This document shows positions 2,777 through 57,070 of a stretch of 64,000 bases of DNA, piece after piece. The stretch's first letter is position 1, and each line of letters opens with the position of its first letter. This DNA is from Escherichia coli (GTDB taxonomy: Bacteria; Pseudomonadota; Gammaproteobacteria; Enterobacterales; Enterobacteriaceae): assembly GCF_016026235.1 (NCBI RefSeq), contig NZ_CP065613.1. One strand, 5' to 3'. A program made the position numbers and the translations under genes. The notes under the pieces are model-generated. The model was not told the DNA's origin. It searched no databases and worked only from the letters and a program-made list of their open reading frames with translations.

Positions 2777-3553
2777 ATGTTACGTTTCTCTGCTAATTTA
2801 TCGATGTTATTTGGAGAATATGATTTTCTCGCCCGTTTTGAGAAAGCTGCGCAGTGTGGTTTTCGCGGCGTTGAATTTATGTTTCCTTATGACTACGACA
2901 TTGAAGAATTAAAACAGGTGCTGGCGAGTAATAAACTCGAACATACGCTGCACAATTTACCGGCGGGTGACTGGGCGGCGGGGGAGCGCGGTATTGCCTG
3001 TATTCCTGGCCGTGAAGAAGAGTTTCGGGATGGCGTAGCAGCAGCGATTCGTTATGCCCGTGCGCTGGGTAATAAAAAAATTAACTGTCTGGTCGGTAAA
3101 ACGCCGGCTGGTTTCAGCAGTGAACAGATTCACGCAACGCTTGTAGAAAACCTGCGTTATGCCGCGAATATGCTGATGAAAGAAGATATTTTATTACTGA
3201 TTGAACCTATTAACCATTTTGATATTCCTGGTTTCCATCTCACCGGAACTCGGCAGGCGCTGAAATTGATTGATGATGTTGGTTGCTGCAATTTGAAAAT
3301 TCAGTATGACATTTATCACATGCAGCGGATGGAAGGTGAATTAACCAACACCATGACTCAGTGGGCTGATAAAATTGGTCACCTGCAAATTGCCGATAAT
3401 CCGCATCGCGGCGAACCGGGAACCGGAGAAATTAATTATGATTATCTCTTTAAGGTAATCGAAAATTCTGACTACAACGGTTGGGTTGGGTGTGAATATA
3501 AACCCCAAACCACCACGGAAGCCGGTTTACGCTGGATGGATCCGTACCGTTAA
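2777..3553 (+). CDS. hyi: Hydroxypyruvate isomerase
   Basis: 258-aa ORF, xylose-isomerase-like TIM barrel; SD-like AGGGAGA upstream; synteny gcl-hyi-glxR. Confidence 0.9.
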   Translation: MLRFSANLSMLFGEYDFLARFEKAAQCGFRGVEFMFPYDYDIEELKQVLASNKLEHTLHNLPAGDWAAGERGIACIPGREEEFRDGVAAAIRYARALGNKKINCLVGKTPAGFSSEQIHATLVENLRYAANMLMKEDILLLIEPINHFDIPGFHLTGTRQALKLIDDVGCCNLKIQYDIYHMQRMEGELTNTMTQWADKIGHLQIADNPHRGEPGTGEINYDYLFKVIENSDYNGWVGCEYKPQTTTEAGLRWMDPYR

Positions 3554-10924: not shown

Positions 10925-10933
10925 TGAATTTAC
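10925..10933. repeat. IS1 target-site duplication, right copy (tgaatttac)
   Basis: 9-bp direct repeat identical to 10148-10156. Confidence 0.8.
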
Positions 10934-11005
10934 TACAAAAAAAGCCACGGTATAAACCGTGGCAAAATCCAACATAGCTAAAAATAATCAGGCGAGTGGT
11001 ATGAC

Positions 11006-41993: not shown

Positions 41994-43376
41994 ATGTCTC
42001 CTTGTAAACTTCTGCCATTTTGTGTGGCCCTTGCGCTAACCGGTTGTTCACTGGCACCGGATTATCAGCGTCCGGCAATGCCCGTTCCTCAGCAGTTCTC
42101 ACTCAGCCAGAACGGCCTCGTTAACGCAGCAGATAACTATCAGAACGCGGGCTGGCGCACCTTTTTTGTTGATAATCAGGTGAAGACGCTGATTAGCGAG
42201 GCGCTGGAGAATAACCGGGATTTGCGCATGGAGACGCTGAAAGTGCAGGAGGCACGGGCGCAATATCGTCTGACTGATGCCGACCGCTACCCACAGCTCA
42301 ATGGTGAGGGCAGCGGCAGCTGGAGCGGCAATCTTAAAGGCGATTCAGCCACGACGCGGGAGTTTTCTACTGGCCTTAACGCCAGCTTTGACCTCGATTT
42401 TTTCGGGCGCTTAAAGAACATGAGCGAAGCCGAGCGACAAAATTATTTAGCCACTGAGGAAGCTCAGCGCGCGGTGCATATTCTGCTGGTTTCTAATGTC
42501 GCGCAAAGCTATTTCAATCAGCAGCTGGCGTATGCGCAATTGCAAATAGCCGAAGAAACGCTGCGTAATTATCAGCAGTCATATGCGTTTGTCGAAAAAC
42601 AACTGTTGACAGGTAGCAGTAATGTTCTGGCGCTGGAACAGGCTCGCGGGGTGATTGAAAGTACCCGCAGCGACATCGCTAAACGTCAGGGGGAACTGGC
42701 GCAGGCGAATAATGCATTGCAACTGTTATTGGGAAGCTACGGCAAGCTGCCGCAAGCGCAGACAGTAAACGGCGGCAGTCTGCAAAGCGTTAAATTACCG
42801 GCGGGCTTGTCGTCGCAAATCTTATTGCAGCGCCCGGATATTATGGAAGCTGAACACGCGTTAATGGCGGCTAATGCCAATATTGGCGCTGCACGCGCGG
42901 CATTTTTCCCATCTATAAGCCTGACCAGCGGAATATCAACCGCCAGCAGCGATCTGTCGTCATTATTTAACGCCAGCAGCGGGATGTGGAATTTTATTCC
43001 TAAAATTGAGATCCCCATTTTTAATGCCGGACGCAACCAGGCCAATCTGGATATCGCCGAAATTCGCCAGCAGCAGTCGGTGGTGAATTATGAACAGAAA
43101 ATCCAGAACGCCTTTAAAGAAGTGGCAGATGCGCTGGCATTACGTCAAAGCCTGAACGATCAAATTAGCGCCCAGCAGCGTTATCTGGCATCGCTGCAAA
43201 TTACTTTGCAACGGGCGCGGGCATTATATCAGCACGGAGCAGTAAGTTATCTGGAAGTGCTGGATGCCGAGCGTTCGTTATTTGCAACCCGACAAACTTT
43301 ACTTGACCTGAATTATGCCCGTCAGGTTAACGAAATTTCTTTATATACCGCACTTGGTGGCGGTTGGCAGCAATAA
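41994..43376 (+). CDS. cusC: Outer-membrane factor of the Cu(I)/Ag(I) efflux pump
   Basis: 460-aa ORF with lipoprotein signal (LTGCS); OMF family. Confidence 0.93.
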   Translation: MSPCKLLPFCVALALTGCSLAPDYQRPAMPVPQQFSLSQNGLVNAADNYQNAGWRTFFVDNQVKTLISEALENNRDLRMETLKVQEARAQYRLTDADRYPQLNGEGSGSWSGNLKGDSATTREFSTGLNASFDLDFFGRLKNMSEAERQNYLATEEAQRAVHILLVSNVAQSYFNQQLAYAQLQIAEETLRNYQQSYAFVEKQLLTGSSNVLALEQARGVIESTRSDIAKRQGELAQANNALQLLLGSYGKLPQAQTVNGGSLQSVKLPAGLSSQILLQRPDIMEAEHALMAANANIGAARAAFFPSISLTSGISTASSDLSSLFNASSGMWNFIPKIEIPIFNAGRNQANLDIAEIRQQQSVVNYEQKIQNAFKEVADALALRQSLNDQISAQQRYLASLQITLQRARALYQHGAVSYLEVLDAERSLFATRQTLLDLNYARQVNEISLYTALGGGWQQ

Positions 43377-43399
43377 CTTTTAACTCCAGGAGAGAATAA

Positions 43400-43732
43400 A
43401 TGAAAAAAGCACTGCAAGTCGCAATGTTCAGTCTGTTTACCGTTATTGGCTTTAATGCCCAGGCTAACGAACATCATCATGAAACCATGAGCGAAGCACA
43501 ACCACAGGTCATTAGTGCCACCGGCGTGGTAAAAGGTGTTGATCTGGAAAGCAAAAAAATCACCATCCATCACGATCCGATTGCTGCCGCGAACTGGCCG
43601 GAGATGACCATGCGCTTTACCATCACTCCGCAGACGAAAATGAGTGAAATTAAAACTGGCGACAAAGTGGCGTTTAATTTTGTCCAGCAGGGCAACCTTT
43701 CTTTATTACAGGATATTAAAGTCAGCCAGTAA
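43400..43732 (+). CDS. cusF: Periplasmic copper/silver chaperone
   Basis: 110-aa ORF with signal peptide and small beta-barrel. Confidence 0.93.
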   Translation: MKKALQVAMFSLFTVIGFNAQANEHHHETMSEAQPQVISATGVVKGVDLESKKITIHHDPIAAANWPEMTMRFTITPQTKMSEIKTGDKVAFNFVQQGNLSLLQDIKVSQ

Positions 43733-43747
43733 CCCAGGTTTAATGAG

Positions 43748-44971
43748 ATGAAAAAAATCGCGCTTATTATCGGCAGCATGATCGCGGGCGGTATTATTTC
43801 TGCGGCAGGTTTTACCTGGTTTGCAAAGGCTGAACCACCCGCAGAAAAAACGTCGACCGCAGAACGTAAAATCTTATTCTGGTACGACCCGATGTACCCC
43901 AATACGCGGTTCGATAAACCTGGTAAATCGCCGTTTATGGATATGGATCTGGTGCCGAAATATGCCGATGAAGAGAGTTCTGCGTCTGGTGTGCGCATTG
44001 ACCCGACTCAGACGCAGAATCTGGGGGTGAAAACGGCTACCGTCACGCGCGGGCCGCTGGCTTTTGCCCAGAGTTTCCCGGCGAATGTCAGTTACAACGA
44101 GTATCAGTATGCCATTGTGCAGGCTCGCGCCGCCGGGTTTATCGACAAGGTGTATCCGCTTACCGTGGGCGATAAAGTGCAAAAGGGCACACCGCTTCTC
44201 GACCTGACCATTCCCGACTGGGTGGAAGCGCAGAGTGAGTATTTACTGCTGCGCGAAACCGGCGGTACGGCGACCCAGACTGAAGGCATTCTTGAGCGGC
44301 TGCGACTGGCGGGAATGCCGGAGGCGGATATTCGCCGCCTGATCGCCACGCAAAAAATCCAGACTCGCTTTACGCTCAAAGCGCCCATTGATGGCGTGAT
44401 CACCGCGTTTGATCTGCGCGCGGGAATGAATATCGCCAAAGATAACGTGGTAGCGAAAATTCAGGGTATGGACCCGGTGTGGGTCACTGCTGCGATCCCG
44501 GAGTCCATCGCCTGGCTGGTGAAAGATGCCTCGCAGTTTACGCTCACCGTTCCGGCGCGACCTGATAAAACACTCACCATCCGCAAATGGACGCTACTAC
44601 CTGGCGTGGATGCCGCGACCCGCACGCTGCAGCTGCGTCTGGAAGTCGACAACGCCGACGAGGCGCTAAAACCGGGAATGAACGCCTGGTTGCAACTCAA
44701 TACCGCCAGCGAACCGATGCTGCTCATTCCGTCACAGGCGCTGATTGATACCGGCAACGAACAGCGGGTGATTACCGTTGATGCCGACGGGCGCTTTGTA
44801 CCGAAACGCGTTGCCGTTTTCCAGGCATCGCAAGGTGTCACCGCGTTACGCTCTGGTCTGGCGGAAGGTGAAAAGGTGGTTTCCAGCGGCCTGTTCCTGA
44901 TTGATTCCGAAGCCAATATTTCTGGCGCACTGGAGCGGATGCGCTCTGAAAGTGCTACCCATGCGCATTGA
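43748..44971 (+). CDS. cusB: Membrane fusion protein of the Cus efflux system
   Basis: 407-aa ORF, HlyD/MFP family. Confidence 0.93.
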   Translation: MKKIALIIGSMIAGGIISAAGFTWFAKAEPPAEKTSTAERKILFWYDPMYPNTRFDKPGKSPFMDMDLVPKYADEESSASGVRIDPTQTQNLGVKTATVTRGPLAFAQSFPANVSYNEYQYAIVQARAAGFIDKVYPLTVGDKVQKGTPLLDLTIPDWVEAQSEYLLLRETGGTATQTEGILERLRLAGMPEADIRRLIATQKIQTRFTLKAPIDGVITAFDLRAGMNIAKDNVVAKIQGMDPVWVTAAIPESIAWLVKDASQFTLTVPARPDKTLTIRKWTLLPGVDAATRTLQLRLEVDNADEALKPGMNAWLQLNTASEPMLLIPSQALIDTGNEQRVITVDADGRFVPKRVAVFQASQGVTALRSGLAEGEKVVSSGLFLIDSEANISGALERMRSESATHAH

Positions 44972-44982
44972 GGGAATAACCA

Positions 44983-47900
44983 ATGATTGAATGGATTATT
45001 CGTCGCTCGGTGGCGAACCGTTTTTTGGTGCTGATGGGCGCGTTGTTTCTAAGTATCTGGGGCACCTGGACCATCATTAACACGCCAGTGGATGCGTTGC
45101 CGGATCTCTCCGATGTGCAGGTGATTATTAAAACCAGCTATCCCGGTCAGGCACCGCAAATCGTTGAAAATCAGGTGACTTATCCGCTAACTACCACCAT
45201 GTTGTCGGTGCCTGGCGCGAAGACTGTGCGTGGTTTCTCGCAGTTTGGCGACTCTTATGTGTATGTCATTTTCGAAGATGGCACCGATCCGTACTGGGCG
45301 CGCTCGCGGGTGCTGGAGTACCTCAACCAGGTACAGGGTAAGCTGCCTGCGGGAGTCAGCGCCGAGCTGGGACCAGATGCCACGGGTGTTGGCTGGATCT
45401 ATGAATATGCACTGGTGGATCGCAGCGGTAAGCACGATCTGGCCGATTTACGCTCATTGCAGGACTGGTTTCTCAAATATGAGCTAAAAACCATCCCTGA
45501 CGTTGCGGAAGTGGCGTCGGTGGGCGGTGTGGTGAAAGAGTATCAGGTGGTTATCGATCCTCAGCGCCTGGCGCAATATGGCATCAGTCTCGCCGAAGTA
45601 AAAAGCGCGCTGGATGCTTCAAACCAGGAAGCGGGCGGTTCGTCGATCGAACTGGCGGAAGCGGAATATATGGTGCGCGCCAGCGGCTATCTGCAAACGC
45701 TCGACGACTTTAATCACATCGTTTTAAAAGCCAGTGAAAATGGCGTGCCCGTTTATCTGCGCGATGTTGCGAAGGTCCAGATTGGCCCGGAGATGCGCCG
45801 GGGCATTGCCGAACTAAACGGCGAAGGCGAAGTGGCGGGCGGGGTGGTGATCCTGCGCTCCGGCAAAAACGCCCGAGAAGTAATCGCCGCCGTGAAGGAC
45901 AAACTGGAAACGCTGAAAAGTAGTCTGCCGGAAGGCGTGGAGATAGTTACAACATACGATCGCAGCCAGCTCATTGACCGCGCCATCGACAACCTCAGCG
46001 GCAAGTTGCTGGAAGAGTTTATTGTGGTGGCGGTAGTCTGTGCGCTGTTTCTCTGGCATGTGCGCTCGGCGCTGGTGGCGATTATTTCGTTGCCGCTGGG
46101 GTTGTGTATTGCTTTTATTGTCATGCACTTCCAGGGACTGAATGCCAATATTATGTCGTTGGGTGGCATTGCGATTGCCGTCGGGGCGATGGTCGATGCC
46201 GCTATCGTCATGATCGAGAATGCACATAAACGGCTGGAAGAGTGGCAGCACCAGCATCCTGACGCCACGCTGGATAATAAAACGCGCTGGCAGGTGATTA
46301 CCGATGCATCTGTTGAAGTGGGGCCGGCGCTGTTTATCAGTCTGCTGATTATCACGCTGTCGTTTATCCCGATCTTCACCCTGGAAGGGCAGGAAGGGCG
46401 TCTGTTTGGCCCGCTGGCGTTCACTAAAACCTATGCGATGGCGGGTGCGGCGCTGCTGGCGATCGTAGTGATCCCTATCCTGATGGGTTACTGGATCCGT
46501 GGCAAAATTCCGCCGGAAAGCAGTAACCCGCTCAATCGCTTTTTGATTCGTGTTTATCATCCTCTATTGCTGAAAGTACTGCACTGGCCGAAAACCACGC
46601 TGTTGGTGGCAGCGCTTTCGGTGCTGACGGTTCTCTGGCCGCTCAATAAAGTTGGCGGGGAATTTTTACCGCAGATCAATGAAGGCGACTTGTTGTATAT
46701 GCCATCGACGCTGCCGGGGATTTCCGCAGCAGAGGCGGCGAGTATGCTGCAAAAAACCGACAAGCTAATTATGAGCGTACCTGAAGTGGCGCGGGTATTT
46801 GGCAAAACCGGGAAAGCGGAAACCGCCACCGACTCTGCTCCGCTGGAGATGGTGGAAACGACCATCCAGCTTAAGCCACAGGATCAGTGGCGGCCAGGCA
46901 TGACGATGGACAAAATCATTGAGGAACTGGATAACACCGTGCGTCTGCCGGGGCTGGCGAATCTGTGGGTGCCGCCAATTCGTAACCGTATCGATATGCT
47001 CTCAACCGGCATTAAAAGCCCCATCGGCATTAAAGTTTCCGGCACTGTGCTGGCGGATATCGACGCGATGGCGGAGCAAATTGAAGAGGTGGCACGAACG
47101 GTGCCAGGCGTGGCTTCTGCGCTTGCCGAGCGTCTGGAAGGTGGGCGCTATATCAACGTTGAGATTAACCGTGAAAAAGCCGCACGTTACGGTATGACGG
47201 TGGCGGATGTGCAGTTGTTTGTGACTTCTGCGGTGGGCGGGGCGATGGTTGGCGAAACGGTGGAAGGGATTGCCCGTTATCCCATTAATCTGCGTTATCC
47301 GCAAAGCTGGCGCGATAGTCCGCAGGCACTGCGCCAGTTGCCGATCCTGACGCCGATGAAGCAGCAAATCACTCTGGCAGACGTGGCCGATGTTAAAGTC
47401 TCTACCGGACCGTCGATGCTGAAAACCGAGAATGCGCGCCCGACGAGCTGGATTTATATCGATGCCCGCGATCGTGACATGGTGTCGGTGGTTCACGATT
47501 TGCAAAAAGCGATAGCTGAAAAAGTGCAGTTAAAACCGGGCACCAGTGTGGCATTCTCCGGGCAGTTCGAGCTACTGGAGCGCGCCAACCATAAGCTTAA
47601 ACTCATGGTGCCGATGACGTTGATGATTATCTTCGTGCTGTTGTATCTGGCGTTCCGTCGGGTGGGCGAAGCGTTGCTGATTATTAGCAGCGTACCGTTT
47701 GCGCTGGTGGGCGGCATCTGGTTGCTGTGGTGGATGGGCTTTCATCTTTCCGTGGCGACGGGCACCGGTTTTATTGCCCTTGCCGGGGTCGCCGCCGAAT
47801 TTGGCGTGGTGATGCTGATGTATTTACGTCACGCCATAGAGGCCGAGCCGTCGTTGAATAATCCGCAAACATTCAGCGAGCAGAAGCTGGATGAGGCGTT

Positions 47901-48126
47901 GTATCACGGCGCGGTACTGCGCGTGCGCCCGAAAGCGATGACGGTGGCGGTGATTATCGCTGGTCTGCTGCCGATTCTGTGGGGAACAGGAGCAGGGTCA
48001 GAGGTGATGAGCCGGATTGCCGCGCCGATGATTGGCGGCATGATCACCGCACCTTTGCTGTCGCTGTTTATTATCCCGGCGGCGTATAAGCTGATGTGGC
48101 TGCACCGACATCGGGTACGGAAATAA
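44983..48126 (+). CDS. cusA: RND heavy-metal efflux transporter
   Basis: 1047-aa ORF with 12 TM segments, RND family. Confidence 0.95.
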
Positions 48127-48227
48127 AAGCAGGATACCCCGTTTAACCGTGTGGATTGTGTCTTGCGACGATGGGCACTAAATGTTAAAAGGTGCCCCTC
48201 AACAAAAAAGACACACAGGGGAAAGGC

Positions 48228-49604
48228 GTGAAAAACGCGTCAATCGTATCGGAAGATACTGCGTCGAATCAAGAGCCGACGCTTCATCGCGGATTACATA
48301 ACCGTCATATTCAACTGATTGCGCTGGGTGGCGCCATTGGTACTGGTCTGTTTCTTGGCATTGGCCCGGCGATTCAGATGGCGGGTCCGGCTGTATTGCT
48401 GGGCTACGGCGTCGCCGGGATCATCGCTTTCCTGATTATGCGCCAGCTCGGCGAGATGGTGGTCGAAGAGCCTGTATCCGGTTCATTTGCCCACTTTGCC
48501 TATAAATACTGGGGACCGTTCGCCGGGTTCCTCTCCGGCTGGAACTACTGGGTGATGTTCGTGCTGGTGGGAATGGCAGAGCTGACCGCTGCGGGCATCT
48601 ATATGCAGTACTGGTTCCAGGATGTTCCAACGTGGATTTGGGCTGCCGCCTTCTTTATTATCATCAACGCCGTTAACCTGGTAAACGTGCGCTTATATGG
48701 CGAAACTGAGTTCTGGTTTGCGCTGATTAAAGTGCTGGCAATCATCGGTATGATCGGCTTTGGTCTGTGGCTGCTGTTTTCTGGGCACGGCGGCGAGAAA
48801 GCCAGTATCGACAACCTCTGGCGCTACGGTGGTTTCTTCGCCACCGGCTGGAATGGGCTGATTTTGTCGCTGGCGGTAATTATGTTCTCCTTCGGCGGTC
48901 TGGAGCTGATCGGGATTACTGCCGCTGAAGCGCGCGATCCGGAAAAAAGCATTCCAAAAGCGGTAAATCAGGTGGTGTATCGCATCCTGCTGTTTTACAT
49001 CGGTTCACTGGTGGTTTTACTGGCGCTCTATCCGTGGGTGGAAGTGAAATCCAACAGTAGCCCGTTTGTGATGATTTTCCATAATCTCGACAGCAACGTG
49101 GTAGCTTCTGCGCTGAACTTCGTCATTCTGGTAGCATCGCTGTCAGTGTATAACAGCGGGGTTTACTCTAACAGCCGCATGCTGTTTGGCCTTTCTGTGC
49201 AGGGTAATGCGCCGAAGTTTTTGACTCGCGTCAGCCGTCGCGGTGTGCCGATTAACTCGCTGATGCTTTCCGGAGCGATCACTTCGCTGGTGGTATTAAT
49301 CAACTATCTGCTGCCGCAAAAAGCGTTTGGTCTGCTGATGGCGCTGGTGGTAGCAACGCTGCTGTTGAACTGGATTATGATCTGCCTGGCGCATCTGCGT
49401 TTTCGTGCTGCGATGCGACGTCAGGGACGTGAAACACAGTTTAAGGCGTTGCTTTATCCGTTCGGCAACTATCTTTGCATTGCCTTCCTCGGCATGATTT
49501 TGCTGCTGATGTGCACGATGGATGATATGCGCTTGTCAGCGATTCTGCTGCCGGTGTGGATTGTATTCCTGTTTGTAGCATTTAAAACGCTGCGTCGGAA
49601 ATAA
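48228..49604 (+). CDS. pheP: Phenylalanine-specific permease (APC family)
   Basis: 458 aa from a GTG start (MKNASIVSED); the track ORF begins at an upstream in-frame ATG (48192). Confidence 0.9.
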   Translation: MKNASIVSEDTASNQEPTLHRGLHNRHIQLIALGGAIGTGLFLGIGPAIQMAGPAVLLGYGVAGIIAFLIMRQLGEMVVEEPVSGSFAHFAYKYWGPFAGFLSGWNYWVMFVLVGMAELTAAGIYMQYWFQDVPTWIWAAAFFIIINAVNLVNVRLYGETEFWFALIKVLAIIGMIGFGLWLLFSGHGGEKASIDNLWRYGGFFATGWNGLILSLAVIMFSFGGLELIGITAAEARDPEKSIPKAVNQVVYRILLFYIGSLVVLLALYPWVEVKSNSSPFVMIFHNLDSNVVASALNFVILVASLSVYNSGVYSNSRMLFGLSVQGNAPKFLTRVSRRGVPINSLMLSGAITSLVVLINYLLPQKAFGLLMALVVATLLLNWIMICLAHLRFRAAMRRQGRETQFKALLYPFGNYLCIAFLGMILLLMCTMDDMRLSAILLPVWIVFLFVAFKTLRRK

Positions 49605-49637
49605 GGCATTCACGCTACATCCGACAAAACGATGTCC

Positions 49638-49669
49638 GCTCTCATCCATTCGATGAGAGCGTTTTTTTT
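49638..49669. terminator. Bidirectional terminator shared by convergent pheP and ybdG
   Basis: Hairpin gctctcatc-cattc-gatgagagc followed by a T8 run (A-rich on the opposite strand). Confidence 0.75.
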
Positions 49670-49671
49670 AA

Positions 49672-50967
<1,296 letters not shown>

Positions 50968-51029
50968 TTATGCAAATCAGGAGAATCTGAGGGGGGATTT
51001 CCTGCGAGGGCTGATGGCAAATACAAAAT

Positions 51030-51118
51030 TGCCTGATGCGCTACGCTTATCATGCCTACCTGAATGAATTGGCACGAACTTGTAGGCAGGATAAGGCGGT
51101 CACGCCGCATCCGGCATA
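51030..51118. repeat. REP/BIME palindromic repeats
   Basis: gcctgatgcgctacgcttatca… and gtaggcaggataaggcggtcacgccgcatccggca units between ybdG and nfsB. Confidence 0.75.
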
Positions 51119-51176
51119 AACAAAGCGCACTTTGTCAGCAATCTGAGCCGGGATGGGGTCCCGGCTGTCAGGAGAA

Positions 51177-51830
51177 TTACACTTCGGTTAAGGTGATGTT
51201 TTGCGGCAGACGAGATTTCGGCAGCGTAGCGTTAAAATCTTCAACGCTGTGATGACCTACCGGAACAACCACCAGACTGGTGTAGCCTTTCTCTTTCAGA
51301 CCAAATTCTGCATCGAGGATGGCGGCGTCAAAACCTTCGATGGGTACCGCGTCCAGACCCAGAGCCGCCACGCCGAGCAGGAAGTTACCGACGTTGAGAT
51401 AAACCTGTTTTGCCATCCACTCTGCATCATCATGCAGATCTTTACGGTGCATATCAGCGAAGAACTTGCGACCTTTATCGTTCGCGGCTTTCGCTTCCGG
51501 CGTGGCAAAGCGGCCATCAGCATCTTCCTGGTCAACAACCAGCTTCAGCCAGGCATCGTCCATCGCGGTTTTTGCACAGAACACCACGACGTGCGAGGCA
51601 TCAAGTATTTTACGTTCGTTGAACACATAATTACCGGCAGCGGATTTGGCAACACGCGCTTTACCTTCTTCCGTGCTGGCAACAATAAAATGCCACGGCT
51701 GGGAGTTGGTGCTGGATGGGCTGTATTGCAGGAGAGTTTTGATCTGCTCGGCCTGTTCCGGGGTAAGTTTTTTGCTGGCATCAAATGCCTTAGTGGAATG
51801 ACGCTTTAAGGCGACAGAAATGATATCCAT
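51177..51830 (-). CDS. nfsB: Oxygen-insensitive NAD(P)H nitroreductase
   Basis: 217 aa from [17 protein letters not shown]. Confidence 0.93.
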
Positions 51831-51923
51831 AAAGACTCCATGTGAAAGTAATTTTGCGTGCCAGCAGATTACAAGGTTCAACGAGAAATGGTAAGCGAGA
51901 AAAATGCGCTATAGATTTCCGCT

Positions 51924-52292
51924 TTAGCCTGGACGCACTCTTTTTTGATCGCGTTTAGCCAGACCATCAACCACCAGATTCCACGAATCGTTGATCAGAT
52001 CGCGAAGTAACGCTTCGGAGATTTCCTCGCCGGGATACACCGAAATCCAGTGCTTTTTATTCATGTGATACCCTGGCTTAATGCTCGGGTATATCTGCTG
52101 ATTTAACAGGGATTTTTGTGGATCGGACTTCAGATTGATAAAGGGGACGCCGCGTAGCTCCGACGACAGCATAAAAATCTTGCCGCCAATTTTAAAAACA
52201 TCGAACTCCGGGCCAAAAGGCCAGCAAAGCTCGACAAAGGGTAACTCAAGGGCCAGGCGTTTCGCCGTTTCGTGCAGTGATTGTTTATCCAT
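51924..52292 (-). CDS. ybdF: Uncharacterised DUF419-like protein
   Basis: 122 aa from [13 protein letters not shown]; the track ORF is extended upstream and would overlap ybdJ. Confidence 0.75.
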
Positions 52293-52356
52293 AAACGTTC
52301 CTTTAGGCGAAGGAGAATAAGCAAAGTATGCCGCGAAGTACGGCGATAATCGACGT

Positions 52357-52605
52357 TTAATCCGCCAGCGAGAACCAGCGTCGCCAGATAAAGCGCAGAA
52401 CAAAATACTCAATAGCGCCCAGCACTAAAAACCACAGACAAAACAATAAAGTGTAAAGCTGACTAAGATCCATCAGATGGAACGTGGTCACCAGTTTTTG
52501 TGCCAGCGTCAGCCCCAGTGCGGGGGCGGGCAGCAGCAGGCAAGAGAGGAAAGCCATCAGCAAAATGCCTGCTGCGGTGGTCAAGGTTTCTAAAGGGTGT
52601 TTCAT
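52357..52605 (-). CDS. ybdJ: Small inner-membrane protein (DUF1158)
   Basis: 82-aa ORF with two hydrophobic segments; synteny. Confidence 0.75.
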
Positions 52606-52670
52606 AACATTGTTAAATGTAAGTTAAAACACCATTGTCAGGGATATTCTTCTGTAAGGCAATTCCCGAC

Positions 52671-53798
<1,128 letters not shown>

Positions 53799-54126
53799 TT
53801 ATGTTGGCGTTTTCTATTCAGTATAGAAGTCGGAGCGGCTGGGCGAGATGCGGAAGTTCTGGAATGTTTCTTTTTTTGATGATGGTGACTGAAGCAAATT
53901 GGCTACATTTTGCAATGTGACCAGTTGCGTCATAGTTGGCTGGCGGCGAAGAATTTTGACGATTGCGGCATGCAGAAAAAAACGGGTTCAGCTTCAGTTG
54001 ATTAAATGAGGAGTGAGAAGTCCGAAACAGGATTCACTGTATAAATAAACAGCCATTTTGTTGAGGAAGGGTAAGATAACGGCGGGTGCCTGAAGCTTTC
54101 CGGTTTCAGGTTTACTCTGAGGTCTG

Positions 54127-54185
54127 GAAAGATGAAGCCCCAGGAGATATTTCTATCAACCCTGGGGCTGCCACTCCAAACCAGA
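54127..54185 (-). ncRNA. sokE: Putative Sok-type antisense RNA, hok copy 1
   Basis: Placed by analogy with known hok/sok loci (antisense to the mok leader 45-100 nt upstream of hok); exact ends were not determined. Confidence 0.35.
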
Positions 54186-54229
54186 CAATTTGGATGGTAG
54201 TTCCTTCTTCGCATGGAGGCAATATAAAC

Positions 54230-54382
54230 ATGCTGACGAAATATGCCCTTGTGGCAGTCATAGTGCTGTGTTTGACGGTACTGGGATTTACGCTTCTGGT
54301 CGGAGACTCGCTGTGTGAGTTTACGGTGAAGGAACGTAATATTGAGTTCAGGGCTGTTCTCGCTTACGAACCGAAGAAGTAG
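54230..54382 (+). CDS. hokE: Hok-family type I toxin (50 aa), copy 1
   Basis: [50 protein letters not shown]; overlapped in frame by a mok-like ORF starting at GTG 54086. Confidence 0.88.
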
Positions 54383-54404
54383 CCGTTGTGCGGGGAGTAA
54401 TCCC

Positions 54405-55698
54405 CTGAGGGATCCCCAGAAAATTTAGTAAACCATTATCATATTGGTATACCGTTGCTGTAGAACTTTCAGCCCTGCGTCAAGTGACAGTGTGTTTAGT
54501 ATGAGTGGAGAATGTCGAATCACATTCTCCGCCAGTTTTAATAACGAGATGACTCGCCTGTGCTTCACTGTATTTGCCTGATATTTATGATGTATCCCTT
54601 TGTTTTCCAGGCTGAAACCGCTTAACCACATAATGATACTGGCTAATGTTGCGATCAGACTCAATACCGTGACCCGCCCGGATGAATGACTGGCACCAAA
54701 CCGTAGTCCAAATCCCCAGCGAGGATTTTTTTCATCCCTGAAATTTTGCTCAATTTGCATTCTACGGCTGTATAATTTCATTACCTGTTTTGGCGAGAAC
54801 TCAGTACTGTTTGTGAAAATAAACCATGGTGATTTCCCGGCAGTACGAGCTTTAGCCGTCACCGATGGTCTGGTTGCTCTTTCCTTCGAGCGTTTAAATC
54901 TACGACCTTTAGGCTTACTTTTATAAAGATAAAAATGCCCTTCATGTTGTGCATTTTTATCTCGACCCAGCAGGCCTTCACCTAAATAAATTGCTGTCGT
55001 TGATGCTTTTGTGCCTGAGTCCGACACCTTTTCCCAGCCATTACCAACATTGTAATAATGATTGCCCAGTACCCGGCAAATATAGGTCCAGCCACGGGAG
55101 CGGAGCTGTTGGAACCATCGCCCCTGAAAACCGGCATCTGTAATAACAATGACATCAGTCCCGGGGGAAAAGCACTCAGCAAGCGATTCCAGAAAACGCT
55201 CATGTACATCTGCATTCGCTGTCTGTGATGATGGAACGACACAACTCATCAACGGTAAAGAACGCCCGTCACATGCCAGGCTTGCCCGCAAAAGCTGAAA
55301 ACGAGAGGCATGATAAGCACTCCAGTCAATGAGTATCACAACACGAGACATTCCCCGCGTAATCTTTTGGGTAATTCGCTGAAAAATGGTGGAAACCTCA
55401 TTTTGCAAATGTCGATTCCCCAACAGTCGATCCACCCGCTTTATTTTGTTTTTAACTGATGCCGTACCGGTTAAATGACGCCCGATACTGGTAAGTGTGA
55501 GGGAAGCGCCATTTATTACAGCATTAGTTGCGTCAATCAGTGATTTTTGACGGTAAAGATGCAAAGGGGCCAGTATATTGTTAAGGAAATTTTGGCATAA
55601 TGAACGTGCAGGCATAGTGGTGATCTCCTTGAAATTGTTAGCACAATCAATTAGATCACATCTCACTATGCCTGTCTTGTTTTCTGGGGATTCCTCAG
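54405..55698 (-). mobile_element. IS4-family insertion sequence, about 1.3 kb (IS186-like by position and target, IS10-like by ends and transposase)
   Basis: Imperfect terminal inverted repeats ctgagggatccccagaaaa / ctgaggaatccccagaaaa; flanked by a roughly 10-bp direct repeat (gagtaatccc); inserted in a GGGG-N-CCCC hairpin 22 bp after the hok stop; boundaries uncertain by 1-2 nt. Confidence 0.8.
54425..55615 (-). CDS. DDE transposase, IS4 family
   Basis: 396 aa from MPARSLCQNFLNN; DDE residues (VILIDWS, VITDAGF) and the YSRRMQIEQNFRDEK signature; the 568-aa track ORF is a read-through from flanking DNA. Confidence 0.85.
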   Translation of the reverse strand: MPARSLCQNFLNNILAPLHLYRQKSLIDATNAVINGASLTLTSIGRHLTGTASVKNKIKRVDRLLGNRHLQNEVSTIFQRITQKITRGMSRVVILIDWSAYHASRFQLLRASLACDGRSLPLMSCVVPSSQTANADVHERFLESLAECFSPGTDVIVITDAGFQGRWFQQLRSRGWTYICRVLGNHYYNVGNGWEKVSDSGTKASTTAIYLGEGLLGRDKNAQHEGHFYLYKSKPKGRRFKRSKERATRPSVTAKARTAGKSPWFIFTNSTEFSPKQVMKLYSRRMQIEQNFRDEKNPRWGFGLRFGASHSSGRVTVLSLIATLASIIMWLSGFSLENKGIHHKYQANTVKHRRVISLLKLAENVIRHSPLILNTLSLDAGLKVLQQRYTNMIMVY

Positions 55699-55932
55699 GA
55701 GTAATCCCCGCATATCCGGTTGTCAGGTCAGGATGGTAAGGCACCTGCTTTACACTTTCGCCCGCGGTCAGTGATGGCTGCGGGCGATTTCGTTTTAAGA
55801 GCAATGATGAGTTTTGCCGACAGAAGTCCGAAACAGGACTCACTGTATAAATAAACAGCCATTTTGCTAAGGAAGGGTAAGATAACGGCGGGTGCCTGAA
55901 GCTTTCCGGTTTCAGGTTAACTCTGAGGTCTG

Positions 55933-55992
55933 GAAAGATGAAGCCCCAGGAGATATTTCTATCAATCCTGGGGCTGCCACTCCGAGCCTCAA
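55933..55992 (-). ncRNA. Putative Sok-type antisense RNA, hok copy 2
   Basis: Homologous position to copy 1; exact ends were not determined. Confidence 0.3.
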
Positions 55993-56036
55993 CAACTCGG
56001 ATGGTAGTCCCTTCTTCGCATGGAGGCAATATAAAC

Positions 56037-56189
56037 ATGCTGACGAAATATGCCCTTGTGGCAGTCATAGTGCTGTGTTTGACGGTGCTGGGATTTACGC
56101 TTCTGGTCGGAGAGTCGCTGTGTGAGTTCACCGTAAAGGAACGTAATATTGAGTTTAAGGCTGTTCTCGCTTACGAACCGAAGAAGTAG
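56037..56189 (+). CDS. Hok-family type I toxin (50 aa), copy 2
   Basis: [50 protein letters not shown]; intact 3' hairpin gcggggagcaatccccgc downstream. Confidence 0.85.
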
Positions 56190-56310
56190 TCGTTGTGCGG
56201 GGAGCAATCCCCGCATATCCGGTTGTCAGGTCAGAGTGGTAAGGCACCTGCTTTACACTTTCGCCCGCAGTCAGTGATGGCTGCGGGCGAATCGTACCAG
56301 ATGTTGTCAA

Positions 56311-56940
56311 TTAATCGTGTTGGCACAGAGTTATGACTATTTTTTCTTTTATCTGCCAGTGCACAGCAAACATCTCATTCTCACGATGAATGATGACCTG
56401 CTGTTTATTCCAGCTAATTATCTGATAGTCCAGAAAACCTGCATCAGTTTGGATCTCACTTGCCTTAAATGCGCTCTCTTTGGCGGAAAATGCCAGTGTC
56501 AGCGCCAGAGAAAAGGCTAAACCGCAGTCTGCGAGTCGCTCGTGTTCTGCTGGTGTAATAATGTTGTCTGCCAATTCGGTCGCTGTTTGCGCAGAAAAAA
56601 TTTCTTCGATATCAACGCCAATCGGTTGACGGGAAACCACGGCCAATGCCGTAGCCCCGCAGTGGCTAATACTGCCGTATACCTCCGCAGGCCACACCGG
56701 TTGGCGTAGCTCGCCGATTGCGGGCACACATTTATAGCCATATTCCCGCAAGGCATAAACAGCAGCGATCCGTCCGGCTAAATGCTCTGTTTTACGTTTA
56801 CGTCCAGCGTGTTGCAGTTGTGCGTAGTGCGGCAGCCAGAGTAAATCCTGCTCACAAAAATTCGCCGGATCGAACTCAACAAAATGCAGCGTATGTCCGG
56901 CAAAGGGGAGGGAGGTATGCGTAGTTTTCATATCGACCAT
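56311..56940 (-). CDS. entD: Enterobactin synthase phosphopantetheinyl transferase
   Basis: 209 aa from MVDMKTTHTSLPFAGHTLHF; the track ORF is extended upstream into the REP region. Confidence 0.88.
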   Translation of the reverse strand: MVDMKTTHTSLPFAGHTLHFVEFDPANFCEQDLLWLPHYAQLQHAGRKRKTEHLAGRIAAVYALREYGYKCVPAIGELRQPVWPAEVYGSISHCGATALAVVSRQPIGVDIEEIFSAQTATELADNIITPAEHERLADCGLAFSLALTLAFSAKESAFKASEIQTDAGFLDYQIISWNKQQVIIHRENEMFAVHWQIKEKIVITLCQHD

Positions 56941-56944
56941 ATCC

Positions 56945-57070
56945 GAGACTGATGACAAACGCAAAACTGCCTGATGCGCTACGCTTATCAGGCCTACATG
57001 GTCCTGCAATATATTGAATTGGCAAGATTTTTGTAGGCCGGATAAGGCGTTCACGCCGCATCCGGCATGA
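56945..57070. repeat. REP/BIME palindromic repeats
   Basis: ctgatgcgctacgcttatcaggcctaca and gtaggccggataaggcgttcacgccgcatccggca units between entD and fepA. Confidence 0.75.

Follow-up and report, generated by a model that had tools for sequence, protein, structure and literature searches.

A common two-copy hokE/sokE locus between ybdK and entD of Escherichia coli, with ISEc60 inserted in the first copy

The window analysed here, a stretch of 64,000 nucleotides from an Escherichia coli genome (contig NZ_CP065613.1), contains two head-to-tail hokE/sokE units, with ybdK on one side and entD on the other, the first unit being split by an insertion sequence (IS). The features that make up the locus, in window coordinates, are the following.

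52671..53789, minus strand: ybdK (carboxylate-amine ligase), left flank, a 372-aa ORF; relatives have an annotated ybdK at the same position
54016..54405, plus strand: 5' part of hokE/sokE unit 1, with the promoter region, the leader, sok, the hok CDS and the greater part of the post-stop hairpin, delimited by the direct repeats D1/D2 (95-96% identity) and by alignment to unit 2
54406..55697, minus strand: ISEc60 (IS4 family), 1292 bp, with boundaries from inverted repeat I2 and a pattern search
54425-55615, minus strand: ISEc60 transposase CDS, 396 aa
55698..55787, plus strand: 3' remnant of hokE unit 1 (repeat D3, 96% identical to 56201-56290), with a terminator-like site
55788-55821, no strand: inter-unit spacer of 34 nt, unique and diagnostic of the tandem state
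55822..56290, plus strand: hokE/sokE unit 2, with an Rfam RF01794 match at 55890-56045 (86.5 bits)
56311..56931, minus strand: entD, right flank, an ORF; relatives carry entD, 621 nt, at the same position

With ISEc60 and one target duplication removed, unit 1 (54016-54405 joined to 55710-55787) is 468 nt long and the uninterrupted unit 2 is 469 nt long; the two align with 24 substitutions and one indel, that is, 25 differences and 94.7% identity, and, with the IS discounted, the repeat has a period of 503 bp. The anchors AGAAGTCCGAAACAGG (54016 and 55822) and GTGATGGCTGCGGGCG (55771 and 56274) each occur exactly twice, the spacer is unlike either outer flank of the locus, and RF01794, with a gathering score of 59, matches twice, the match in unit 1 being at 54084-54238 (80.2 bits). 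Given the length and identity of the units and the two RF01794 matches, the repeat is far beyond chance. An earlier note on this DNA, made from the letters alone, had described two diverged tandem units of the hok/mok/sok type, and the anchors, alignment and Rfam matches bear this out; its unit size of about 490 bp and its count of about 20 nucleotide differences are replaced by the values above, its spacer of about 35 bp agrees with the 34 nt measured, and translation confirms its reading of a complete 50-aa Hok peptide in each copy with two residue differences. It had also correctly placed an IS in the post-stop hairpin of copy 1 and an intact 3' hairpin in copy 2. Within the units, the following elements are discerned.

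54037..54052, plus strand: LexA-box-like CTGTATAAATAAACAG of unit 1, lying 27-42 nt ahead of the predicted 5' end of the hok mRNA
54081..54090, plus strand: tac-like 5' element GGCGGGTGCC of unit 1, homologue of the tac-like element of unit 2
54132..54200, plus strand: leader ORF (mok-like) of unit 1, with 22 codons before the TAG at 54198-54200, out of the hok frame
54230..54382, plus strand: hokE copy 1 CDS, 50 aa with D26 and R41, from translation
55843-55858, plus strand: LexA box of unit 2, exact CTGTATAAATAAACAG
55887-55896, plus strand: tac-like element of unit 2, paired with the fbi-like element in the predicted fold
55938-56189, plus strand: mok-like ORF of unit 2, 83 aa, ATG at 55938, in frame through hok
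56037-56189, plus strand: hok CDS of unit 2, 50 aa with E26 and K41
56197-56214, plus strand: post-stop hairpin of unit 2, GCGGGGAGCAATCCCCGC, intact
56243-56251, plus strand: fbi-like element of unit 2, 3' partner of the tac-like element
56261-56290, plus strand: terminal hairpin of unit 2, with no T-run behind it

Judged by Pfam, Rfam and identity to HokE of E. coli K-12, both genes can be assigned to the Hok/Gef family, as hokE orthologues between ybdK and entD. The copy 2 protein matches PF01848 (HOK_GEF) over residues 5-46 (E = 6e-8), and each of the two proteins, which differ from one another by D26E and R41K only, is identical to K-12 HokE at 48 of 50 positions; the NCBIfam HokA/Hok-family models are hit with E values of 1e-10 to 1e-13 and scores below their curated cut-offs (49 vs 89 and 40 vs 73 bits).

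The exact string CTGTATAAATAAACAG is found only at 54037 and 55843. Of the 15 units compared, 14 have it unchanged and the remaining one reads CTGTATAAATATACAG; the CTGT...ACAG arms are invariant. With this predicted LexA box overlapping the promoter of each unit, both units are predicted members of the LexA regulon; hokE is described as SOS-induced in PMC1891008 (citing Fernandez De Henestrosa 2000), and its induction appears in ciprofloxacin data from enterohaemorrhagic E. coli (EHEC; PMC11125564). The promoter assignments rest on homology, and a simple sigma-70 scan missed the promoters of both hok and Sok.

The element in copy 1 can be identified as ISEc60, of the IS4 family, from its transposase, inverted repeats and target duplication. 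The transposase scores 360 bits against NCBIfam NF033591 (IS4 family transposase; cutoff 152), and 99.5%-identical copies are annotated in RefSeq as 'IS4-like element ISEc60 family transposase'; the 18-bp inverted repeats, TGAGGGATCCCCAGAAAA (54406-54423) and TGAGGAATCCCCAGAAAA (55680-55697), have one mismatch, and the 12-bp target duplication GGAGTAATCCCC lies at 54394-54405 and 55698-55709. IS186 was also considered and rejected: near-identical copies of the element are annotated as ISEc60, and its transposase shows no meaningful similarity to InsL. The insertion site is the 3' foot of the post-stop hairpin of copy 1. At the left junction, the GGGG/CCCC core is kept, and the two closing pairs and everything downstream are lost; this residual 4-bp hairpin might lend the copy 1 mRNA some stability. 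A terminator-like site lies within the element at 54505-54532. In the genome of FDAARGOS_943, ISEc60 is present at 35 places. The tandem pair together with ISEc60 was found in none of 5426 complete E. coli genomes, and the severing of copy 1 from its 3' control region by ISEc60 is the feature particular to this genome.

The 3' remnant of unit 1 holds an fbi-like element, GGCACCTGC at 55740-55748, and a terminator hairpin at 55758-55787 followed by TTTCGTTTTA, so that the partner of the tac-like element is now 1.65 kb distant. Because the IS separates the two partners, no tac/fbi closure was found in the predicted fold of the copy 1 read-through transcript. In unit 1 the leader ORF has lost the frame of hok through an old 1-nt deletion within the Sok-target loop (the indel at 54182/55989), and it ends 30 nt ahead of the hok ATG; the deletion allele is also present in other strains and species. 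The protein itself is identical to the copy 1 proteins of strains O145 RM9872 and GF3-3. Since ISEc60 parts the hok ORF from the fbi-like element and the terminator by 1.3 kb, copy 1 has most likely ceased to work as a regulated toxin.

In copy 2, every canonical hok/sok element that can be checked in the sequence is present, including the LexA box, which allows for a functional module, and this copy, with only three differences from copy 2 of O145 RM9872, is the only candidate active module at the locus. Both the minimum free energy (MFE) and the centroid folds of its mRNA pair GGCGGGUGCC with GGCACCUGC, a predicted closure of the full-length 5' and 3' ends (z = -8.5). A T-run after the terminal hairpin is absent from copy 2 and from the entD-proximal unit of every aligned genome; hence, the 3' end of copy 2 may not form as it does in plasmid R1.

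Each unit also appears to encode an antisense Sok RNA, and the segment that it would target is where the two copies diverge most conspicuously.

54128..54186, minus strand: putative sok of unit 1, 59 nt; its predicted fold has a single-stranded 5' tail of 10 nt, GUCUGGUUUG, and then a long hairpin
55934..55993, minus strand: putative sok of unit 2, 60 nt, with 5' tail GUUGAGGCUC, placed by positional homology to K-12 sokE, fold and duplex energies
54178..54191 (unit 2: 55984-55998), no strand: divergence hot spot, CCAAACC-AGACAATTTGG vs CCGAGCCTCAACAACTCGG, a target stem-loop matching the Sok 5' tail

The placement rests on the annotated 5' end of sokE in K-12 (b4835, lying between 103 and 44 nt before the hok ATG), a gene to which sok of unit 1 is homologous in position. 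The putative Sok promoter, which agrees with the consensus at 8 of 12 positions, consists on the minus strand of TTGCCT (54222-54217) and TACCAT (54199-54194) separated by 17 nt in unit 1, and of TTGCCT (56029-56024) and TACCAT (56006-56001) in unit 2. The matches of the Rfam 'sok' model that pass its gathering score are on the mRNA strand.

Eight of the 25 differences between the units fall within the 15 columns of the hot spot (corrected P about 3e-4), two A-U to G-C changes in the target stem are compensatory, and beyond their first 9 nt the Sok RNAs differ at one position only. The predicted energies of duplexes formed by the tail only are -25.6 and -29.2 kcal/mol for the cognate pairs and -16.0 and -9.7 kcal/mol for the non-cognate ones. 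This clustering of changes in the Sok tail and target loop, with compensatory changes in the stem, suggests copy-specific antisense recognition. It is possible, though in our view doubtful, that the paralogues are maintained as mutually insulated modules, each Sok nucleating efficiently only on its own mRNA; were this the case, deregulation of copy 1 by the IS would not be buffered by the Sok of copy 2, and vice versa. A simpler scheme, in which copy 1 has one fixed Sok-tail allele and copy 2 another, was rejected because it fails across species: the '-AGACAA' allele, which in E. coli and E. whittamii belongs to copy 1, is in copy 2 in Escherichia sp. MOD1-EC7003 and SCPM-O-B-8794. The loop differs between the copies in all six tandem genomes compared, which, with three to four alleles circulating, is not significant.

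Ranking of genomes by coverage of the whole locus proved misleading, the only match with at least 80% coverage (H1) being a single-copy locus with its pieces joined; therefore, a junction-specific query (window 55772-55838, spanning copy 1, spacer and copy 2) was used to search the complete E. coli genomes. The tandem junction is present in 1448 of the 5426, including those of O157:H7, O55:H7, O145:H28, O103 and O121 strains, and in O145 RM9872, GF3-3 and O55:H7 CB9615 both genes are annotated as hokE in RefSeq. Thus, the tandem pair is a common polymorphism that is already annotated and has little discovery value: the earlier note had implied that it was novel unless reference genomes showed the same arrangement, and they do. 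Its view that K-12 lacks a second copy was accurate, in that MG1655 has a single hokE with about 107 bp from IS186B to entD, and its contention that the pair is neither a fresh duplication nor an assembly artefact is upheld by the 25 differences and the spread of the junction. The genome paper on E. coli W likewise counts hokE once in K-12 and several times in W (PMC3032704).

E. whittamii, Escherichia sp. MOD1-EC7003 and SCPM-O-B-8794 likewise carry two units in tandem, joined by a homologous spacer. Because this spacer is shared with E. whittamii and these two other divergent Escherichia, the duplication is older than E. coli. Among E. coli strains, each copy forms a class of its own, with 3-7 differences in most within-class comparisons and 25-32 between classes; copy 1 of O145 is a within-class outlier (19-20 differences). 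The single copy in K-12 most likely reflects secondary loss. The single-copy alleles of K-12 and SMS-3-5 were also examined as simple crossover hybrids of copies 1 and 2, and this was rejected: they are mosaics carrying a third allele of the Sok tail, for which a single crossover cannot account. The locus has been struck repeatedly by IS elements (IS186/IS421, IS150, ISEc60), and a 99.9%-identical relative lacks copy 2.

The pN/pS ratio is 0.13 between the copies and 0.18 when pooled over 15 units; the hokE units evolve under purifying selection. At the RNA level, 19 of the 26 variable pairs of the consensus mRNA structure stay paired in all sequences, including those of the tac/fbi helix and the compensated target hairpin, and the only changes in the tac/fbi helix across the 15 units are from G-C to G-U.

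We consider it highly probable that the locus is a chromosomal hokE/sokE type I toxin-antitoxin in an old two-copy form that is common in E. coli, with copy 1 disabled by ISEc60 and copy 2 as the only active candidate. The data above establish the anatomy, population frequency, age of the duplication and purifying selection; expression, processing, toxicity and Sok specificity are proposed. Each unit would have a LexA box over the -35 region of its hok promoter and would produce a structured hok mRNA with pairing between the 5' tac-like and the 3' fbi-like element; a short mok-like leader ORF, its start codon masked by an antisense Sok transcribed within the leader, would precede the ORF of a 50-aa membrane toxin, followed by the post-stop and terminal hairpins. 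On the model of hok/sok of plasmid R1 (PMC9841398), the full-length mRNA would be closed and inert, trimming of the 3' end would open it, and Sok would pair with it through the single-stranded 5' tail, after which the duplex would be destroyed. Toxin would be made only if the hok mRNA outlasts Sok, here most plausibly after SOS induction. The lesion of copy 1 is of the same kind as that caused by IS186 in hokE of K-12, where hokA, hokC and hokE are reported as inactivated by IS elements (PMC12214031).

Other explanations fare differently against this evidence. The notion of a recent duplication, or of an assembly artefact, peculiar to this genome can be dismissed almost outright: the similarity of the units (94.7%) is all that speaks for it, and it is already refuted by the 25 differences, compensatory ones included, by the near identity of each copy to its counterpart in independent complete genomes, and by the occurrence of the junction in 1448 genomes and in other Escherichia species. 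More weight, although still the lesser share, goes to the view that both copies are inert relics, with copy 2 intact in sequence but not expressing toxin in vivo, and with persistence of the locus owing to drift or hitch-hiking. The lack of a T-run terminator in copy 2, the repeated IS strikes and the complete loss of copy 2 from a 99.9%-identical relative are all compatible with decay, and intact chromosomal hokA, hokB and hokC confer no post-segregational killing and no response to rifampicin, as summarised in bioRxiv 10.1101/2025.08.07.668861. Against it stand the low pN/pS ratios (0.13-0.18), RNA pairings kept across species in both copies, a LexA box that is essentially invariant over 15 units, the SOS induction of hokE in K-12 and EHEC, and the toxicity of the K-12 HokE CDS upon expression (bioRxiv 10.1101/2025.08.07.668861).

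It seems quite improbable that copy 1 is still an active source of toxin, its mRNA, devoid of the fbi-like element, being constitutively open and restrained by Sok alone. The hok ORF, the Sok gene, the LexA box and the leader are intact upstream of the IS, the short hairpin at the left junction is kept, and the terminator-like site within the IS could be counted in favour of such a transcript. However, in R1, toxicity is abolished when the last 3' stem-loop is destabilised or when mok is cut short ahead of the hok Shine-Dalgarno sequence (PMC9841398), and copy 1 has lesions of both types, having lost two closing pairs together with the 3' region and having a leader that stops 30 nt before the ATG; furthermore, hokE of K-12 also has an IS in this hairpin and is considered inactivated (PMC12214031). 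We therefore retain the reading of a disabled copy 1 next to a candidate copy 2.

Descriptions of IS insertions in hok loci go back to 1999. The hokE/sokE unit of K-12 (b4415/b4835) resembles those described here in its position between ybdK and entD, LexA box, leader, position of Sok and 3' elements, and IS186B lies within the same 12-bp hairpin target just past the stop codon. In contrast, K-12 has one unit where there are two here, the IS here is ISEc60, which is unrelated to IS186 InsL and in the opposite orientation, and its Sok-tail allele (CCCGAACAA loop) is unlike those of both copies. The tandem hokE-hokE loci of O157:H7, O55:H7, O145:H28, O103, O121, GF3-3 and others have the same units, spacer and order, but copy 1 in these genomes is free of an IS; O145:H28 strains match the window with 100% identity over 291 nt spanning the junction (55700-55990), and copy 1 of O55:H7 differs from that analysed here at five positions. 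These genomes form a natural series that runs from the intact pair (EHEC and others) through the IS-hit copy 1 described here and the loss of copy 2 (FDAARGOS_943) to the single IS-hit copy of K-12, and that could serve to probe the role of chromosomal hokE after DNA damage and the discrimination of targets by tandem type I antitoxins.

With hok/mok/sok of plasmid R1 the units share the general architecture: a predicted tac/fbi closure of the full-length mRNA, a leader start that would be covered by a putative antisense RNA with a single-stranded 5' tail, a membrane toxin of roughly 50 aa and a protective hairpin after the stop codon. They differ from R1 in that the locus is chromosomal and under a LexA box and that the leader of copy 2 shares the reading frame of hok, as it does in the hokE unit of K-12 and presumably also in mokC/hokC and mokB/hokB of K-12. 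Moreover, chromosomal loci are not known to mediate post-segregational killing (bioRxiv 10.1101/2025.08.07.668861).

In their arrangement as head-to-tail paralogues within one intergenic region, the units are comparable to zorO-orzO/zorP-orzP, ibs-sib arrays, ldr-rdl arrays, and hok 'islets'. The zor/orz type offers the further likeness that differences are concentrated in the antisense recognition segment: through the variable region V1, zorO is recognised by OrzO and not by OrzP (PMC3919570), whereas for the two SokE RNAs, nearly identical past their 5' tails, discrimination is predicted. Tandem repetition has been named a hallmark of type I toxin-antitoxin loci (PMC2887945), and 10% of Hok genes lie in islets of 2-6 (bioRxiv 10.1101/2025.08.07.668861).

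The tandem hokE pair in the ybdK-entD interval is a known, annotated arrangement that has additionally sustained a lineage-specific IS insertion. The two hokE/sokE units lie head to tail at the position occupied by hokE/sokE in K-12, with the following layout:

52671-53789, minus strand: ybdK, left neighbour of the units
54016-54405 and 55710-55787: unit 1, 468 nt with the IS and one copy of the target duplication taken out
54230-54382: Hok ORF of copy 1, 50 aa
54406-55697: ISEc60, 1292 bp, transposase on the minus strand
55740-55748: fbi-like element of copy 1
55758-55787: terminator of copy 1, followed by a T-run
55788-55821: inter-unit spacer, 34 nt
55822-56290: unit 2, 469 nt, uninterrupted
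55843-55858: LexA-box-like CTGTATAAATAAACAG, 27-42 nt upstream of the presumed copy 2 hok mRNA 5' end
55934-55993, minus strand: putative sok of copy 2, by homology to the annotated sokE of K-12
56037-56189: Hok ORF of copy 2, 50 aa
56197-56214: post-stop hairpin of copy 2, intact
56261-56290: terminal hairpin of copy 2, intact
56311-56931, minus strand: entD, right neighbour of the units

The earlier note had described two head-to-tail units encoding 50-aa peptides, with copy 1 interrupted by an IS in its 3' hairpin and that of copy 2 intact. This observation and its structural interpretation are confirmed, and both anchor strings that delimited the units occur exactly twice; the unit length of ~490 bp and the ~20 differences are to be corrected, the alignment containing 24 substitutions and one indel. 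The Hok peptides differ by D26E and R41K. The spacer shows no resemblance to either outer flank.

Rfam RF01794 matches both hok mRNA leaders (54084-54238 and 55890-56045, plus strand) with 80 and 86 bits, compared to a gathering score of 59; each Hok peptide is identical to K-12 HokE at 48 of 50 positions, and Pfam HOK_GEF matches the peptide of copy 2, the one scanned. The NCBIfam Hok models match as well, yet under their curated cut-offs. RF01794 bears the name 'sok antitoxin', yet sokE of K-12 is annotated on the strand opposite to these matches; what the model captures is effectively the hok mRNA leader.

The earlier note further implied that the pair was new, a view to be given up if reference genomes carried the same arrangement. 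Searching 5426 complete E. coli genomes with a 67-nt query spanning the unit 1-spacer-unit 2 junction, we found the junction in 1448, nearly always at >=99% identity and including O157:H7, O55:H7, O145:H28, O103 and O121 genomes, and the novelty is therefore gone. RefSeq annotates two hokE genes in this interval in all three genomes inspected, O145 RM9872, GF3-3 and O55:H7 CB9615; K-12 MG1655 has one, in keeping with the note, and so does SMS-3-5. That hokE is single in K-12 but present several times in W was already noted in the E. coli W genome paper (PMC3032704). PMC2887945 names repetition in tandem as a hallmark of type I toxin-antitoxin loci, and 10% of surveyed Hok genes sit in islets of 2 to 6 that stem from local duplication (bioRxiv 10.1101/2025.08.07.668861).

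Among the E. coli strains compared, the units sort into a copy 1 class and a copy 2 class: copy 1 of the window differs from that of O55:H7 and GF3-3 at 5 positions and copy 2 from that of O145 and GF3-3 at 3, compared to 25-32 differences between the copies across strains. Among GTDB species, each represented by one genome, the tandem pair was detected, with a spacer whose homology is still recognisable, in E. whittamii, Escherichia sp. MOD1-EC7003 and SCPM-O-B-8794 (labelled E. coli); the flanks of E. whittamii and SCPM-O-B-8794 match the window at no more than 92-94% identity. Its presence in three divergent Escherichia genomes indicates that the duplication is older than E. coli. Single copies are found in E. 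albertii and Escherichia sp. E1V33. From these comparisons we infer that the tandem state is probably ancestral; the single copy of K-12 would most simply reflect loss of one 503-bp period. The coding changes between the copies comprise 5 synonymous and 2 conservative non-synonymous ones (pN/pS = 0.13; 0.18 pooled over 15 units); in a consensus fold of 15 mRNAs, 19 of 26 variable pairs are paired in every sequence, and the only variation within the tac/fbi helix is from G-C to G-U. Thus, both copies have long been constrained in peptide and RNA structure. Copy 1 Hok of O55:H7 (L006, the CB9615 region, 2263-2415) carries L18P in the transmembrane helix, which may inactivate it in that lineage. 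E. whittamii has ~670 bp of extra, apparently protein-coding DNA between ybdK and the hokE pair (L011, 2012-2680) that is absent from E. coli.

ISEc60 is bounded by terminal inverted repeats (18 bp, one mismatch), is flanked on both sides by a 12-bp target duplication, GGAGTAATCCCC, and encodes a 396-aa IS4-family transposase (NF033591, 360 bits vs. a cutoff of 152); the RefSeq label comes from copies 99.5% identical to it. A relationship to IS186 was rejected, the transposase having just one short motif in common with K-12 InsL. K-12 IS186B nevertheless occupies the same 12-bp target in the opposite orientation (window 54394-54405; 2495-2510 of L004, the MG1655 region), within a GGGG-N6-CCCC hairpin directly after hokE. 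The two elements, both of the IS4 family, are mutually unrelated, and the insertions are independent events by different elements. In other genomes hokE is hit by IS150 or IS421; the hairpin seems to be an insertion hot spot for several IS types.

The insertion lies at the 3' foot of the hairpin that follows the hok stop codon, with the GGGG/CCCC core retained at the left junction, and puts 1.3 kb between the copy 1 hok ORF and its downstream 77 nt, which hold the fbi-like element and the terminator. Upstream of the IS, copy 1 has the same elements as copy 2 except for the leader ORF: a 1-nt deletion (54182/54183) in the Sok-target loop frameshifts the mok-like ORF, which stops at TAG 54198-54200, 30 nt ahead of the hok ATG. 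This TAG overlaps an ATG (54194) in frame with hok. The deletion allele is old: 1119 complete E. coli genomes have it, as do other Escherichia species. In R1, Hok synthesis is abolished when mok terminates early, before the hok Shine-Dalgarno sequence, and function is also lost through mutations that weaken the last 3' stem-loop (PMC9841398); by analogy, copy 1 would be doubly compromised, by the leader stop and the 3' lesion. When a copy 1 transcript extending into the IS was folded, no 5'-3' closure was seen. In many genomes the RefSeq annotation includes, antisense to the hok leader, a frameshifted pseudogene for a 'hypothetical protein' (window 54002-54214, minus strand; 3205-3472 of the FDAARGOS_943 region L001), which looks like an ORF-calling artefact over a structured leader.

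In copy 2, the mRNA 5' end was placed by homology to that of R1 hok. The predicted fold of the full-length RNA (55885-56296) has a z-score of -8.5 relative to shuffles; in it, the 5'-end GGCGGGUGCC pairs with GGCACCUGC near the 3' end, which is the tac/fbi closure by which hok mRNAs are defined (PMC9841398). The leader ORF, opening at 55938, is in frame with hok and continues through it (83 aa in all). The putative sok, preceded by TTGCCT-17 nt-TACCAT, overlies this start codon; its predicted fold has a single-stranded 5' tail of 10 nt and then a long hairpin. No T-run follows the terminal hairpin, either here or in the entD-proximal unit of any aligned genome.

Copy 2, intact in sequence, is best read as a putative DNA-damage-inducible, Sok-repressed toxin module, and copy 1 as probably disabled. 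Transcription of K-12 hokE is SOS-induced (PMC1891008); ciprofloxacin induces a hokE gene in EDL933 (PMC11125564), and overexpression of the HokE coding sequence is toxic (bioRxiv 10.1101/2025.08.07.668861). An addiction-type role is disfavoured by the lack of post-segregational killing by intact chromosomal hokA, hokB and hokC, as summarised in the same preprint. TadA is reported to edit hokE mRNA (A-to-I) at Y46, with ~40% editing and a Tyr to Cys change (PMC12214031); the TACG context is retained in both copies (54365-54367, 56172-56174).

Within 15 columns (54178-54191 / 55984-55998) fall 8 of the 25 inter-copy differences (corrected P ~3e-4). This segment is a stem-loop; the Sok 5' tail, predicted as GUCUGGUUUG and GUUGAGGCUC in the two copies, is complementary to its loop and 3' arm. 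The stem change from CCAAA/TTTGG to CCGAG/CTCGG amounts to two compensatory pairs. Computed tail-only duplex energies are -25.6 and -29.2 kcal/mol for cognate and -16.0 and -9.7 kcal/mol for non-cognate combinations. The clustered, compensated changes and these energies suggest copy-specific antitoxin recognition, as demonstrated experimentally for tandem zorO-orzO/zorP-orzP (PMC3919570). However, beyond the first 9 nt the predicted Sok RNAs differ at one position only, and the tail alleles are swapped between copy positions in other species, so that we consider such specificity a tentative and rather doubtful proposition.

The window's exact state, a tandem pair with ISEc60, was not found among the complete E. 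coli genomes in the collection. FDAARGOS_943, the IS-rich closest relative, with flanks 99.9% identical, lacks exactly one 503-bp period (L001, NZ_CP065615.1, 3400-5030 vs. window 54390-56290): its ISEc60 has copy 1 GGAGTAATCCCC on the left and, on the right, the copy 2 target GGAGCAATCCCC and a copy 2-type 3' end. Intramolecular transposition into the paralogous hairpin (adjacent deletion) or IS-IS recombination fits better than a plain crossover, for which just 4 nt would have been available. Thus, the hokE locus is still decaying in the window's lineage. Across window ~1-50500, the matching FDAARGOS_943 region (L061) contains several insertions of IS1, IS5-family elements and ISEc60, together with many disrupted genes, including nfrA, sfmF, fdrA, allB and allE, a genome-decay pattern like that of Shigella/EIEC. 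No complete E. coli genome matches window 42000-54400 in one piece at >98.7% identity. Elsewhere in the window, three Rfam matches exceed the gathering score:

10933-10999: STnc480 sRNA
32419-32492: tRNA
56990-57031: ES036 (CssrF), in the entD-fepA intergenic region
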